From: a virus
Lineage: Duplodnaviria > Heunggongvirae > Uroviricota > Caudoviricetes
Length of the DNA: 7,461 bases
Direction: 5' to 3' (one strand)
IMG/VR virus record: IMGVR_UViG_2778261152_000006
The notes beneath the pieces were generated by a model, which worked only from the letters and a program-made list of their open reading frames with translations, was not told the DNA's origin and made no database searches. Made by a program: the position numbers and the translations under genes. This document shows, piece by piece, positions 273 through 7,461 of this stretch (position 1 is the first letter of the stretch; every line of letters begins with the position of its first letter).

Positions 273-698
273 TCAATGCACAGCCACAATATTTCCTGCA
301 GGGCCACCACGATTCATCTGGTTGAAACCAGCGATCGCCACTGCGACAAAATCATCAGCGTCTCTCACCAGTCGTTCCCGCGTCTCCACTAGTTCCCGAA
401 AATAGGCTGAGCTATGGCTGCGCATTCGGGCCACCAGCAGAGGTGGCATTGCTTTTTCGATAGCTGGTAACAACGCCTGAATTTTTTCAACTGCATCAGG
501 GGTGTCTTTCTCTACCCAGCGGAAAATTTTCTGGGTATTGCGAGCCAGGGCTTCCGGATGGCTGTCGTCATACAGTTCTGGGAACGTCATACCCAGTTCA
601 AAATAAGCCCTGGTTATTTCAGCTGCCGGAACTTTTTCACCGTCCGGATGCGCCCAGGCATTCATCGCCATGCGGATGTGTTCATGCTTGATTTTCAT
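273..698 (-). CDS. ydaT: CII-like prophage regulator (YdaT family), 141 aa
   Basis: ORF-track 141 aa protein starting MKIKHEHI, which I recall as the YdaT N-terminus. GGAG lies about 8 nt upstream of the ATG on the minus strand. Start overlaps the end of the upstream Cro-like gene by 17 nt. Symbol is tentative. Confidence 0.7.
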   Translation of the reverse strand: MKIKHEHIRMAMNAWAHPDGEKVPAAEITRAYFELGMTFPELYDDSHPEALARNTQKIFRWVEKDTPDAVEKIQALLPAIEKAMPPLLVARMRSHSSAYFRELVETRERLVRDADDFVAVAIAGFNQMNRGGPAGNIVAVH

Positions 699-963
699 GA
701 ATCAAGCTCCTAGAAAGTGGTTGTGTTAACATTTTGGTATCTTCCAGCTCGGGCCAAATATTCATCCAATCAAAAGGCCTTAGTTGCTGACGTGTAACTT
801 CACCATTACTGGCTCGCTCAATAAGGACACATAACGATGCCCCTAACACTTGACCTTTACTCAATGCCTTTCTTAGATAACCGATGCTGGTACCACACTC
901 GCATGCAAACATACGCTGTTCATCTGACGAAAGAGAATTGAGAAATATTCTTAATTCTTCCAT
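682..963 (-). CDS. Cro-like HTH regulator (YdaS-family analogue), 93 aa
   Basis: 93 aa ORF with an HTH-like segment (ECGTSIGYLRKALSKGQ) and a ...GEVTRQQLRPFDW tail typical of Cro/YdaS-family proteins. Strong SD AAGGAG 6 nt upstream of the ATG on the minus strand. Divergent from the repressor gene across a 100 bp operator-bearing intergenic region. Confidence 0.7.
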   Translation of the reverse strand: MEELRIFLNSLSSDEQRMFACECGTSIGYLRKALSKGQVLGASLCVLIERASNGEVTRQQLRPFDWMNIWPELEDTKMLTQPLSRSLIHENQA

Positions 964-992
964 AGCTACTCCTTAGTAAACACAGCAAAGAA

Positions 993-1069
993 CACCCATA
1001 GGTAAACAAAAGTCAATACCCACAGGTTGTTTACCTTGCAGTAATCGCATCTATTATTTACCTATGGAC
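993..1069. promoter_or_regulatory. OR-like operator cluster between the divergent Cro-like and repressor genes; repeated TACC-N4-GGTA / GGTAAA half-sites
   Basis: CCATAGGTAAA at 996-1006 and its reverse complement TTTACCTATGG at 1057-1067 (11/11). GGTAAACAA at 1001-1009 and its reverse complement TTGTTTACC at 1027-1035. The last site overlaps the repressor ATG at 1064. Confidence 0.5.
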
Positions 1070-1483
1070 AAATATGAATTTAGACGACAGCAACTCATCA
1101 AAATTCGTGATGAGAAATGCGATGGTAAAGCGGTTAACGTGGCCAGAAAGATCGGGCGCGAGCCTTCTTATGTATCAAGAATGTTGTACCCAGAGGGGAA
1201 AAAGGGAAAAAAACGGATCGCTGATGATATGGTGGAGATTATCGAAGAGTCCTTTGGGTTACCCCGGGGATGGATGGATGGTATCGTTTCATCATCAACG
1301 AACACAGCCTCCAGTTATGAAACAAGGGTTCTAACGCCACGACAACGTATTTTTTTAGATCTCTTAGACGAACTGCCAGAAAGTGAAGCGGATAACTTAT
1401 TAAAAACTCTTGAAGAGAAAAAACAGTATTACAATATGATCTACGAAGAAATCCGTAAAAAGAAAGCACAAAACGCATCATAG
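1064..1483 (+). CDS. Prophage repressor (CI/RacR analogue, HTH), 139 aa
   Basis: 139 aa ORF divergent from the Cro-like gene, in the position of racR/cI. No in-frame alternative start upstream (stop at 977-979) and no SD, suggesting a leaderless mRNA. Shorter than the 158 aa I recall for K-12 RacR, so probably a variant immunity allele. Confidence 0.7.
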   Translation: MDKYEFRRQQLIKIRDEKCDGKAVNVARKIGREPSYVSRMLYPEGKKGKKRIADDMVEIIEESFGLPRGWMDGIVSSSTNTASSYETRVLTPRQRIFLDLLDELPESEADNLLKTLEEKKQYYNMIYEEIRKKKAQNAS

Positions 1484-1525: not shown

Positions 1526-1574
1526 TACCCATGGGTATTTACTTTTTAAATACCTATGGGTATCCTTCTTTTCA
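1526..1574 (+). promoter_or_regulatory. OL-like operator palindrome downstream of the repressor gene; also folds as a 15 bp stem-loop followed by a T-rich tract (possible terminator)
   Basis: TACCCATGGGTATTT (1526-1540) and the reverse complement of 1548-1562 (TACCCATAGGTATTT) match 14/15, the mismatch being a G-U wobble in RNA. Loop 1541-1547. Followed by ATCCTTCTTTT. Core ACCCAT(A/G)GGTA is the same motif as at 995-1004. Confidence 0.45.
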
Positions 1575-3806: not shown

Positions 3807-6407
3807 ATGAGCACAAAACCACTCTTCCTGTTACGGAAAGCGAAAAAATCATCCGGTGAACCTGACGTCGTCCTGTGGGCAAGCAACGATTTTGAATCGA
3901 CCTGTGCCACTCTGGACTACCTGATCGTTAAGTCAGGTAAAAAACTGAGCAGCTATTTTAAAGCTGTTGCCACGAATTTTCCTGTCGTTAATGACCTGCC
4001 CGCTGAAGGTGAGATCGATTTTACCTGGAGTGAACGCTATCAACTCAGCAAAGACTCCATGACATGGGAACTAAAACCGGGAGCAGCACCAGACAACGCT
4101 CACTATCAAGGCAATACCAACGTCAACGGCGAAGACATGACTGAGATTGAGGAGAATATGCTACTCCCAATTTCTGGCCAGGAACTGCCCATTCGTTGGC
4201 TTGCTCAACACGGCAGCGAAAAACCGGTAACGCACGTTTCACGCGACGGACTCCAGGCATTACACATTGCTCGGGCTGAAGAACTACCGGCTGTTACTGC
4301 CCTGGCTGTTTCCCACAAAACCAGCCTGCTCGACCCGCTGGAAATTCGCGAACTCCACAAACTGGTTCGTGACACTGACAAAGTTTTCCCTAATCCTGGT
4401 AATTCAAACCTGGGACTGATAACTGCTTTTTTCGAAGCATACCTGAACGCTGACTACACCGATCGAGGACTGCTGACAAAAGAGTGGATGAAGGGTAATC
4501 GTGTTTCACACATCACTCGCACGGCTTCCGGTGCTAATGCTGGCGGCGGAAACCTCACCGATCGCGGCGAAGGTTTCGTACACGATCTGACGTCACTGGC
4601 GCGCGACGTAGCCACTGGCGTACTGGCCCGTTCAATGGATCTGGACATCTATAACCTTCATCCGGCACACGCTAAACGCATTGAGGAAATTATCGCTGAA
4701 AATAAACCGCCCTTTTCTGTTTTCCGCGACAAATTCATCACCATGCCTGGCGGGCTGGATTATTCCCGCGCCATCGTGGTTGCGTCCGTAAAAGAAGCAC
4801 CAATTGGGATCGAGGTCATCCCCGCGCACGTCACTGAATATCTGAACAAAGTACTGACTGAAACCGATCATGCCAACCCTGATCCGGAAATCGTGGATAT
4901 TGCCTGCGGTCGCTCCTCTGCCCCGATGCCGCAGCGAGTAACAGAAGAAGGAAAACAGGATGATGAAGAAAAACCGCAACCATCTGGAACAACGGCAGTT
5001 GAACAGGGAGAGGCTGAAACAATGGAACCGGACGCAACTGAACATCATCAGGACACGCAGCCGCTGGATGCTCAGTCACAGGTAAATTCTGTTGATGCGA
5101 AATATCAGGAACTGCGGGCAGAACTCCATGAAGCCCGGAAAAACATTCCATCAAAAAATCCTGTCGATGCCGATAAATTGCTTGCTGCATCACGTGGTGA
5201 ATTTGTTGACGGAATTAGCGACCCGAACGATCCGAAATGGGTAAAGGGGATCCAGACTCGCGATTGTGTGTACCAGAACCAGCCAGAAACGGAAAAAACC
5301 AGCCCAGATATGAATCAACCTGAGCCAGTAGTGCAACAGGAACCGGAAATAGCCTGCAATGCCTGCGGCCAGACTGGCGGGGATAACTGCCCTGACTGTG
5401 GTGCGGTGATGGGCGACGCAACATACCAGGAAACATTCGCTGAAGAGAGTCAGGTTGAAGCTAAGGAAAATGATCCGGAGGAAATGGAAGGCGCTGAACA
5501 TCCGCACAATGAGAATGCTGGCAGCGATCCGCATCGCGATTGCAGTGATGAAACTGGCGAAGTCGCAGATCCCGTAATCGTAGAAGACATAGAGCCAGGT
5601 ATTTATTACGGAATTTCGAATGAGAATTACCACGCGGGTCCCGGTATCAGTAAGTCTCAGCTCGATGACATTGCTGATACTCCGGCACTATATTTGTGGC
5701 GTAAAAATGCCCCCGTGGACACCACAAAGACAAAAACGCTCGATTTAGGAACTGCTTTCCACTGCCGGGTACTTGAACCGGAAGAATTCAGTAACCGCTT
5801 TATCGTAGCACCTGAATTTAACCGCCGTACAAACGCCGGAAAAGAAGAAGAGAAAGCGTTTCTGATGGAATGCGCAAGCACAGGAAAAACGGTTATCACT
5901 GCGGAAGAAGGCCGGAAAATTGAACTCATGTATCAAAGCGTTATGGCTTTGCCGCTGGGGCAATGGCTTGTTGAAAGCGCCGGACACGCTGAATCATCAA
6001 TTTACTGGGAAGATCCTGAAACAGGAATTTTGTGTCGGTGCCGTCCGGACAAAATTATCCCTGAATTTCACTGGATCATGGACGTGAAAACTACGGCGGA
6101 TATTCAACGATTCAAAACCGCTTATTACGACTACCGCTATCACGTTCAGGATGCATTCTACAGTGACGGTTATGAAGCACAGTTTGGAGTGCAGCCAACT
6201 TTCGTTTTTCTGGTTGCCAGCACAACTATTGAATGCGGACGTTATCCGGTTGAAATTTTCATGATGGGCGAAGAAGCAAAACTGGCAGGTCAACAGGAAT
6301 ATCACCGCAATCTGCGAACCCTGTCTGACTGCCTGAATACCGATGAATGGCCAGCTATTAAGACATTATCACTGCCCCGCTGGGCTAAGGAATATGCAAA
6401 TGACTAA
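3807..6407 (+). CDS. recE: Exodeoxyribonuclease VIII (RecE), 866 aa
   Basis: 866 aa [32 protein letters not shown]... ending ...[11 protein letters not shown], matching the length and sequence I recall for K-12 RecE. The C-terminal third carries the nuclease domain; the middle is acidic and low-complexity. GAGG 9 nt upstream of the ATG. Confidence 0.95.
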
Positions 6408-7086
6408 GCAACCACCAATCGCAAAAGCCGATCTGCAAAAAACCCAGGGAAACCGTGCACCAGCAGCAGTTAAAAATAGCGACGTGATTAGTTTTATTAA
6501 CCAGCCATCAATGAAAGAGCAACTGGCAGCAGCTCTTCCACGCCATATGACGGCTGAACGTATGATCCGTATCGCCACCACAGAAATTCGTAAAGTTCCG
6601 GCGTTAGGAAACTGTGACACTATGAGTTTTGTCAGTGCGATCGTACAGTGTTCACAGCTCGGACTTGAGCCAGGTAGCGCCCTCGGTCATGCATATTTAC
6701 TGCCTTTTGGTAATAAAAACGAAAAGAGCGGTAAAAAGAACGTTCAGCTAATCATTGGCTATCGCGGCATGATTGATCTGGCTCGCCGTTCTGGTCAAAT
6801 CGCCAGCCTGTCAGCCCGTGTTGTCCGTGAAGGTGACGAGTTTAGCTTCGAATTTGGCCTTGATGAAAAGTTAATACACCGCCCGGGAGAAAACGAAGAT
6901 GCCCCGGTTACCCACGTCTATGCTGTCGCAAGACTGAAAGACGGAGGTACTCAGTTTGAAGTTATGACGCGCAAACAGATTGAGCTGGTGCGCAGCCTGA
7001 GTAAAGCTGGTAATAACGGGCCGTGGGTAACTCACTGGGAAGAAATGGCAAAGAAAACGGGTGATGATGCCAACTTACTGATTTAG
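6400..7086 (+). CDS. recT: RecT recombinase, truncated by IS1: 220 native codons plus 8 IS1-encoded codons (GDDANLLI), then stop
   Basis: [32 protein letters not shown]... matches RecT up to ...WEEMAKKT. The IS1 terminal repeat then begins at 7060. Full-length RecT is 269 aa as I recall it. The ATG at 6400 overlaps the recE stop (ATGACTAA). Track ORF 6343-7086 starts at an upstream ATG that I regard as not used. Confidence 0.9.
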
Positions 7087-7114
7087 TGTATGATGGTGTT
7101 TTTGAGGTGCTCCA

Positions 7115-7390
7115 GTGGCTTCTGTTTCTATCAGCTGTCCCTCCTGTTCAGCTACTGACGGGGTGGTGCGTAACGGCAAAAGCACCGCCGGACATCAGCG
7201 CTATCTCTGCTCTCACTGCCGTAAAACATGGCAACTGCAGTTCACTTACACCGCTTCTCAACCCGGTACGCACCAGAAAATCATTGATATGGCCATGAAT
7301 GGCGTTGGATGCCGGGCAACCGCCCGCATTATGGGCGTTGGCCTCAACACGATTTTCCGCCATTTAAAAAACTCAGGCCGCAGTCGGTAA
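7115..7390 (+). CDS. insA: IS1 InsA (transposition regulator), 91 aa
   Basis: [91 protein letters not shown] is the IS1 InsA sequence. Confidence 0.95.
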
Positions 7391-7461
7391 CCTCGCGCAT
7401 ACAGCCGGGCAGTGACGTCATCGTCTGCGCGGAAATGGACGAACAGTGGGGCTATGTCGGG
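7309..7461 (+). CDS. insB: IS1 InsB (transposase frame), N-terminal 51 codons; partial at window end. Active product is the InsAB' frameshift fusion
   Basis: -1 frame relative to insA translates [51 protein letters not shown], matching the InsB N-terminus. Open to the end of the window. Confidence 0.8.
7366..7372 (+). other. IS1 A6C programmed -1 ribosomal frameshift motif (AAAAAAC) at the end of insA
   Basis: TTAAAAAAC at 7364-7372 sits in the insA/insB overlap, where the IS1 frameshift window is known to lie. Confidence 0.7.

Follow-up and report, generated by a model that had tools for sequence, protein, structure and literature searches.

Predicted operators of a lambda-type switch in a Rac prophage with a non-K-12 immunity module

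The stretch of DNA analysed here, called the window throughout (7,461 nt), is a Rac prophage of Escherichia coli that carries a non-K-12 immunity module, and this text concerns the short palindromes found between and behind the divergent genes of that module. Positions 250–1700 are 100% identical to strain H7 and others, in which the element adjoins ttcA and the genes run in the order intR-xisR-ralR-recT-recE-racC-kilR-sieB-ydaF, followed by the repressor, cro-like, ydaT-like and replication genes. The module was found in 813 of 5,426 complete E. coli genomes (~15%). Transcriptional regulator/repressor functions are assigned by PHROG to the products of both divergent genes, while the RefSeq label of the 139-aa repressor is 'hypothetical protein'. 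The genes of interest are:

1064–1483, plus strand: repressor, 139 aa; phrog_5736 (PHROG 'transcriptional regulator'), no Pfam hit.
682–963, minus strand: Cro-like protein, 93 aa; weak YdaS-family match, homologue of the Cro protein of the lambdoid phage mEp043.
273–698, minus strand: YdaT/CII-like protein, 141 aa, second gene of the PR-like operon; PF06254, phrog_163; 33% identical to K-12 YdaT.

Short palindromes with TACC and GGTA arms lie in the intergenic region and downstream of the repressor gene. A motif scan of the whole window with the pattern TACCNNNNGGTA, allowing at most one mismatch, returned 8 matches against 1.3 expected, a count that none of 200 control shuffles reached. Five of these eight are grouped in two clusters, one in the gap (993, 1017 and 1032) and one, of two exact copies (1526 and 1551), that begins 43 nt beyond the repressor stop codon. 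Trained on 68 sites from 16 other loci, with the window left out, a weight matrix has as its top six in the window these five positions and 1059; the seventh hit scores 6.0, and the maxima of shuffled sequences have a median of 7.3 and a 95th percentile of 14.4, a threshold below which the site at 1059 falls. The operator consensus given by the matrix is (T/A)TACC-YRYR-GGTA(A/T) (Y, pyrimidine; R, purine), a 14-bp palindrome, with sites of 12–14 bp. In the window the sites start at -71, -47 and -32 from the repressor ATG and at +43 and +68 downstream, and O1, O2 and O3 have one core mismatch each. They are listed here without a strand, with their placement relative to predicted transcription start points at ~1064 (plus strand), ~982 (minus strand) and ~1573 (plus strand):

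993–1004: O1, CACCCATAGGTA; in the core of the Cro-ward (PR-like) promoter, -22 to -11 from its predicted start; outer half mutated from TACC to CACC; 15.3 bits.
1017–1028: O2, TACCCACAGGTT; abuts the PR-like -35, -46 to -35 of the Cro-ward promoter, with its centre at -41.5 of the repressor promoter, whose predicted start is the repressor ATG; 14.5 bits.
1032–1043: O3, weak, TACCTTGCAGTA; over the -35 of the repressor (PRM-like) promoter, -32 to -21 from its predicted start; 8.7 bits.
1059–1070: candidate O4, TACCTATGGACA; over the repressor ATG; 10.4 bits.
1526–1537: OLa, a perfect palindrome and exact match, TACCCATGGGTA; abuts the -35 of the PL-like promoter, -47 to -36 from its predicted start; best score, 21.9 bits.
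1551–1562: OLb, exact match, TACCTATGGGTA; within the PL-like promoter (spacer and -10), -22 to -11 from its predicted start; 19.7 bits.

A preliminary description of this DNA had drawn attention to repeats in the gap. The roughly 100 bp that it gave for the distance between the Cro-like and repressor genes is the interval between their start codons (964–1063, 100 bp), and the four strings that it quoted are present where it placed them, namely CCATAGGTAAA at 996–1006, the reverse complement TTTACCTATGG at 1057–1067, GGTAAACAA at 1001–1009 and TTGTTTACC at 1027–1035; a repeat finder returns them as the inverted pairs I4 and I13. The core palindrome that it proposed, TACCCATAGGTA, does not occur in the window, as 993–1004 reads CACCCATAGGTA, with a CACC that breaks the palindrome. 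Three related palindromic sites do exist, as it had held, but they are 993–1004, 1017–1028 and 1032–1043 and not those it listed: pieces of O1 and O3 had been seen, half-sites had been paired across the region, and O2 and the downstream pair had been missed. The reading of 996–1006 and 1057–1067 as one long-range inverted repeat was dropped, only the adjacent 12-bp palindromes being conserved in relatives.

Three promoters are predicted at these sites:

1030–1035, plus strand: PRM-like -35, TTTACC, the left half of O3; found by promoter scan (TTTACC-16-TATTAT, 9/12) and conserved in the alignment of relatives.
1052–1057, plus strand: PRM-like -10, TATTAT, 6 nt before the repressor ATG; found by the same scan.
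1011–1016, minus strand: PR-like -35, TTGACT; its GTCAA is kept in nearly all relatives.
989–994, minus strand: position of the PR-like -10, which reads TGTTCT here and TATTCT in other E. coli; taken from the TAnnnT pattern in the alignment of relatives.
1538–1566, plus strand: PL-like promoter, TTTACT-17-TATCCT, read from the sequence; -35 at 1538–1543, -10 at 1561–1566, OLb in the spacer.

The GTCAA of the PR-like -35 has a pairwise identity of 0.76 among relatives, against a background of 0.41, and is separated by 16–17 bp from a -10 that in most relatives reads TAAACT, TAAGCT or TAAATT. The outer TA of O1 starts this TAnnnT hexamer, which accounts for a conserved A 4 nt outside O1. On the repressor side, a TAnAAT-like hexamer lies exactly 6 nt from the repressor ATG in most aligned relatives. 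No Shine-Dalgarno sequence is present before this ATG and the -10 is only 6 nt away, which implies that the repressor mRNA is leaderless, starting at ~1064, as in lambda cI, paaR2 of CP-933P and racR of K-12 (PMC8630535, PMC9638921). The PL-like promoter is directed into ydaG/ydaF and further to kilR, racC and recET; the downstream pair of the relatives has TTGACn and TAnnnT in the same places as the PL-like hexamers, and the depositors of the mEp043 GenBank record marked the homologous pair, which lies upstream of gene N, as a 'putative PL'. The predicted PL leader (1573–1737) folds like its shuffles (z -0.26), offering no support for a put- or nut-like RNA, and an Rfam scan of the whole window gave no match. 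A boxA-like CGCTCTTTAAC(A)A, as in lambda nutL, is found ~50–65 nt after the OL pairs of Edwardsiella hoshinae (L005) and Aeromonas piscicola (L016); the window has instead, at 1579–1601, another conserved stretch, CCAACCCACCCCGCCCCACAGAA, in common with a Salmonella locus (L030). In three related prophages (L028, L029 and L031) the PL operon includes a gene for an Ash/pRha-domain protein.

For the comparison across relatives, the repressor protein was searched against one genome per species, which gave 23 loci, and a phage search added mEp043. The loci come from about 20 other genera, including Yersinia, Arsenophonus, Edwardsiella, Klebsiella, Brenneria, Leclercia, Aeromonas, Paraburkholderia, Herbaspirillum, Alcaligenes, Stenotrophomonas and a Xanthobacteraceae metagenome-assembled genome. 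Their repressors share only the N-terminal 72–86 residues, with 39–82% identity. TACC-N4-GGTA stands at -72, -47 and -32 from the ATG in nearly all of them, the departures being Klebsiella, Rahnella and Ewingella. The homologue of O1 is at -72/-71 in 23 loci, that of O2 at -47/-48, with a right half GGTT or GGTC in all Cro-containing relatives, and that of O3 at -32/-33; the downstream pair occurs in 19 loci (window counted), with the two sites 25–26 bp apart and 0.04–1.9 kb past the repressor stop. Among 16 relatives, without the window, mean pairwise identity is 0.91 in the 24 core columns, 0.45 in the N4 spacers and 0.41 in the other intergenic positions. Exact sites in the relatives number 67 in 122.5 kb against 1.9 expected, and 34 of the 67 lie within one 56-bp segment upstream of the ATG; no exact site was found in the 7.5-kb region of the heteroimmune K-12 Rac. 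The motif is thus far above expectation in the window and in the relatives alike, not at a density similar to chance, and its sites are kept at fixed positions. The idea of the preliminary description that multiple dimer-type CI/Cro operators are built on TACC-N4-GGTA is strongly favoured by this position-specific conservation in about 24 related loci.

Each position has its own form of the motif:

O1 class: tTTACC-YRYR-GGTAAa; YRYR spacer in 16 of 16 loci.
O2 class: AATACC-YRYR-GGT(T/C)AT, last A always missing; YRYR spacer in 12 of 13.
O3 class: good arms, spacer mostly non-YRYR (11 of 15; YRYR in 4 of 15).
OLb class, promoter-proximal: better of the OL pair; YRYR spacer in 10 of 12.
OLa class, promoter-distal: weaker of the OL pair; YRYR spacer in 7 of 12.

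From the match to consensus we infer an order of affinity of O1 and OLb over O2 and OLa, and of these over O3, a grading that would parallel OR1 > OR2 > OR3 in lambda.

Matches might also have arisen by chance in an AT-rich spacer, since single 4-mer half-sites are frequent; the fourth site and the matches at 513–524, 4285–4296 and 6701–6712 do look like chance. For O1, O2, O3, OLa and OLb this explanation is refuted by the shuffles, the weight matrix and the conservation of positions across proteobacterial classes, and we regard it as having next to no probability. The case of the fourth site is different from that of the other five. In candidate O4 the left half (TTTACC) is intact and the spacer is YRYR; the right half is set by codons 1–3 of the repressor gene (ATG GAC AAA). 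It is found in the E. coli relatives (L027–L033), weakened (TACT) in Salmonella L030 and absent from all distant relatives; the close relatives are too similar for its conservation among them to carry weight. The autoregulatory site that had been placed over the repressor ATG (1057–1070) therefore did not hold up: it has one good half-site and is kept only in very close E. coli/Salmonella relatives. We retain 1059–1070 as a candidate operator over the ATG, and O3, over the -35 of the repressor promoter, as the candidate for the conserved site of negative autoregulation.

The repeats might be mere promoter elements with accidental echoes, read by RNA polymerase alone, with TTTACC as a -35 and GGTA-TAnnnT as a -10, and there is some overlap of this kind: TTTACC at 1030–1035 is the -35 of the sole promoter called by the scan, and the outer TA of both O1 and OLb lies within predicted -10 hexamers. 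Both halves of the palindromes are conserved, however, even where they fall in promoter spacers, in which the polymerase has no need of a particular sequence (GGTA of O3, inner GGTA of O1, TACC of OLb). The YRYR pattern of the spacer is kept as well, and the 12-mer recurs five times at fixed 25-bp and 15-bp spacing, so that a promoter-only origin appears highly improbable.

The downstream pair could be interpreted in another way, with only the intergenic sites being operators and 1526–1562 being mainly an intrinsic terminator or a 3' stabilising hairpin of the repressor mRNA. A terminator scan calls a 16-pair hairpin followed by the T-rich TCCTTCTTTT (1526–1575), the RNA folds at -24.1 kcal/mol (z -5.3), and the N4 spacers covary with the stem kept (CATG/TATG in the window, CACA/TGTG in L027 and CGTG/CATG in L030). 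Two copies of a palindrome will always give a hairpin, though, and every relative has one, of -9 to -24 kcal/mol, whereas the T-run is lost already in L027 and L030. Most relatives have the pair 0.4–1.9 kb past the repressor gene with other genes between; it is always preceded by TTGAC-like hexamers and followed by TAnnnT, and in mEp043 it is upstream of N at the annotated PL. A mainly terminator-like role is thus unlikely, although in the E. coli/Salmonella subclade the OL pair may serve additionally to terminate the repressor mRNA or to stabilise its 3' end.

As to the protein that reads the sites, the Cro-like gene is co-inherited with the O1–O3 set in 18 loci, and the intergenic region of CP-933P is protected by YdaS as well as by PaaR2 (PMC8630535), as would suit a reading by the Cro-like protein or a host factor and not by the 139-aa protein. 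Five Klebsiella loci (L006, L008 and L010–L012) speak against this. They retain O1, an OL-like pair and a homologue of the repressor (233 aa), with an O3-like site in three of the five (L010–L012), and have no Cro-like gene, O2 or TTGAC at these loci, a pattern that ties the sites to the repressor, and O2 and TTGAC to the Cro-ward promoter. In addition, the helix-turn-helix (HTH) domain of the repressor, with 23 invariant residues in 72, matches an invariant operator core. A reader other than the repressor is very unlikely in our view; by analogy with related switches, binding by both the repressor and the Cro-like protein is the expected case. The Klebsiella loci themselves look like a repressor-only remnant or a different type of element.

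The repressor was modelled with AlphaFold (AF2) on 33 homologues, at a mean predicted local distance difference test (pLDDT) of 86.7. The model has five N-terminal helices (3–72), a disordered linker (73–91) and two C-terminal helices (92–138), and its closest folds in the PDB are XRE/lambda-repressor-like HTH proteins, including Rep of a Salmonella temperate phage (5d50), C.Esp1396I (TM 0.71, root-mean-square deviation 2.6 Å), HigA and SinR. The model thus depicts the protein as an XRE HTH domain (1–72), a linker and a DicA-like helical C-terminal domain (89–138). An earlier idea of a winged helix was abandoned: the PDB sequence search gave only insignificant matches (ADAR1 Z-alpha, E 0.08), and the fold search gave the XRE HTH instead. 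The N-terminal HTH, MDKYE..REPSYVSRMLYPEGKKGKKRIADDM..LPRGWMDG, is the most conserved segment of the family, the 23 invariant columns in residues 1–72 having been counted over 33 proteins. Residues 89–134 are 33% identical to residues 84–129 of DicA of the Qin prophage (E 1e-7), with a weak NCBIfam PRK09706 hit as well. A Pfam scan of the 139-aa protein gave no hit, hence neither an S24 domain nor a match to an HTH model. Most relatives are 221–242 aa long and carry Peptidase_S24 (PF00717), which occurs only in those long relatives. Sequence comparison thus points to a domain swap in which the same DNA-binding domain is fused either to a self-cleaving S24 domain or to a short helical one, and the Rac repressor of the window would accordingly not be cleavable by RecA.

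The run A5GGGA7 at 1193–1215 of the repressor gene encodes EGKKGKKR, and many E. coli genomes have an extra A at ~1206 (compared with L031–L033). The extra A shifts the repressor frame, and the gene is then called as 135–136 aa from an out-of-frame ATG at 1074 (P0010–P0018). This could be a recurrent inactivation by slippage in the A-run of the Lys codons, or a homopolymer sequencing error.

Sequence comparison establishes that the sites exist, that they are symmetric and conserved, and that even in distant bacteria their distances to the repressor ATG, to the promoter hexamers and to one another are fixed. The region between the two genes is very probably the OR of a lambda-type switch that governs immunity in this non-K-12 Rac variant, with a matching OL 460 bp away. 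Several points weigh against this interpretation. In the window O1 and O3 are degenerate, with CACC in the former and AGTA and a non-YRYR spacer in the latter. O2 and O3 are 15 bp apart from centre to centre, which leaves their simultaneous occupancy and a lambda-like cooperativity uncertain. The promoter scan calls the PRM-like promoter only among the three; the PR-like and PL-like promoters reach at most 8/12 (8/12 for the PL-like) and are assigned by conservation. The loci were gathered through the repressor, so the set does not discriminate between the co-inherited proteins as the binder; only the Klebsiella loci are a partial exception. Finally, the repressor and the Cro-like protein have no sequence similarity, so an argument from shared recognition residues is not available.

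In such a switch, dimers of the 139-aa repressor would recognise the operator palindrome, as would, if lambdoid switches are a guide, the 93-aa Cro-like protein. Repressor dimers on O1, which lies within the PR-like promoter (spacer and -10), and on O2, 24–25 bp away at the -35, would silence the Cro/YdaT/replication operon. From its position at -41.5, the O2 dimer may stimulate the leaderless repressor promoter, in the manner of lambda CI at OR2, and at high repressor levels the weak O3 over the -35 could provide negative autoregulation. OLa and OLb would repress the PL-like promoter with the same geometry and so control ydaG-ydaF and, further on, kilR-racC-recET, with the Cro-like protein competing for the same sites.

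The same architecture with other operator sequences has been shown experimentally for RacR of K-12 (PMC9638921) and for PaaR2/YdaS of CP-933P (PMC8630535). Against lambda (figures from established knowledge and from the comparison in PMC8630535), the window agrees in having divergent repressor and cro genes ~100 bp apart with three related palindromic sites over two back-to-back promoters, which are predicted here; in having its best match to consensus at the promoter-proximal site and a weak third site; in the O1–O2 distance (24–25 bp here, 24 bp in lambda) and the centre of O2 (-41.5, against -42 for OR2); and in a leaderless repressor mRNA and a second operator cluster that lies beyond the repressor operon on a PL promoter, the mRNA form and the promoter again being predictions here. 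It differs in that its sites are 12–14 bp long (TTACC-YRYR-GGTAA) and not 17 bp, that O2 and O3 are 15 bp apart and not 23 bp, which would set two dimers nearly back to back, that OL has two sites and not three, that its repressor lacks the S24 autocleavage domain and that Pfam HTH models see no similarity.

The closest relative in a plaque-forming phage is mEp043 (Aguilavirus mEp043). The N-terminal domain of its cI shows 65% identity (residues 1–86), the segment assigned as the recognition helix, REPSYVSRMLYPEGK, is identical, its Cro is homologous, and the layout of O1, O2, O3 and the OL pair is shared, with PL annotated upstream of N. In contrast, its cI is 228 aa long (family members of similar length carry PF00717), against 139 aa with a DicA-like C-terminus here, and it has lambda-type cII and N where the window has YdaT and Rac early genes. 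The window has both traits, N-terminal domain and site layout, of a provisional mEp043-type immunity group. Wild-type mEp043 and its clear-plaque derivative c-1 are identical in the 5.2 kb around cI, so that no genetic link to lysogeny was obtained from this pair, and a literature search on the motif and on mEp043 found no paper describing the motif or the operators of mEp043. The shared recognition-helix segment and the same operator cores suggest that strains with this Rac variant should be immune to mEp043-type phages.

K-12 Rac is the same prophage at the same att site (ttcA) with the same gene order. Published work on K-12 describes three inverted-repeat operators between racR and ydaS, a racR promoter that gives a leaderless transcript and a site covering the racR start codon, the operators of RacR being (T/A)TAGGC-n3-GCCTA(T/A) (PMC9638921). 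In the window neither TAGGC nor GCCTA is present in 964–1063, the 139-aa protein has no significant BLASTP alignment to K-12 RacR, and YdaS is only weakly similar. With a repressor unrelated to RacR, different operators and none of its sites in K-12 Rac, the window is, on sequence grounds, a heteroimmune Rac of an immunity type so far uncharacterised.

In CP-933P of E. coli O157:H7, PRM, PR and PL have been mapped by experiment, the repressor gene is leaderless, the repressor at low dose activates PRM, and YdaS and YdaT are Cro and CII analogues (PMC8630535, PMC9986795). CP-933P differs from the window in its 18-bp palindromes with the half-site GTTTAGTAA, four of them in OR, and in a toxin-antitoxin pair after the repressor gene, which has no counterpart here. 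At 973–981, in the leader of the Cro-like gene, the window reads TTAGTAAAC (minus strand GTTTACTAA), which has 8 of 9 bases of this half-site in a single copy; the likeness to the PaaR2/YdaS half-site is probably a coincidence.

DicA, besides its homologous C-terminal 46 residues, is likewise a short prophage repressor without S24, but its N-terminal DNA-binding domain is not detectably similar, and a different operator specificity is therefore expected. The controller (C) proteins of restriction-modification systems belong to unrelated systems and have no sequence similarity to the repressor of the window; its DNA-binding domain superposes best on C.Esp1396I, but this match is unspecific, since good superposition is general among XRE domains. 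Two adjacent palindromes are bound by C proteins, of which the distal one activates and the proximal one, over the -35, represses, an arrangement that O2 and O3 at 15 bp resemble.

In 1,451 bp, the window and strain CP53 have a single difference, C for T at 993. Exact 36-mer searches of the complete E. coli genomes found the C993 allele in 20 of 5,426, and two T993 alleles in 510 and 110 genomes (~620 in total); by this comparison, C at 993 is a rare derived allele. The T993C change removes the invariant first T of O1 and, read on the opposite strand, turns the predicted -10 from TATTCT into TGTTCT, with loss of its second-position A. Loss of the A at -10 position 2 should be a strong down-mutation, and the predicted lytic promoter of the window is probably weak through T993C, whatever the repressor does. 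The pair of alleles constitutes a natural experiment on the overlap of promoter and operator. At 1040 both the window and CP53 have A, so that O3 reads AGTA, and the commoner E. coli allele has G (GGTA).

Knowledge of the operators allows a common Rac variant and its relatives to be annotated, and it predicts control of the recET/kilR early-left operon and of the potentially toxic YdaS/YdaT operon in carrier strains. The logic of the switch is that of textbooks and the concept is unchanged; the operator specificity is conserved unusually widely, from enterobacteria to alphaproteobacteria. Phage immunities usually diversify in operator specificity. We consider it conceivable, if rather doubtful, that the graded layout O1-25 bp-O2-15 bp-O3, found from Enterobacterales to Burkholderiales and Xanthobacteraceae, is a distinct and old switch design that has kept one specificity across bacterial classes, with O2/O3 acting like the site pair of a restriction-modification controller and T993C being a natural lock-off that makes the repressor dispensable in a domesticated Rac.

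At the far end of the window, the recT frame (6343–7086, 247 aa) stops early and is followed, within 7086–7461, by an open reading frame (7115–7390) that resembles InsA of IS1. Strain H7 has a recT of 269 aa and carries IS1 in kilR instead, which indicates independent IS1 hits in the same prophage lineage.

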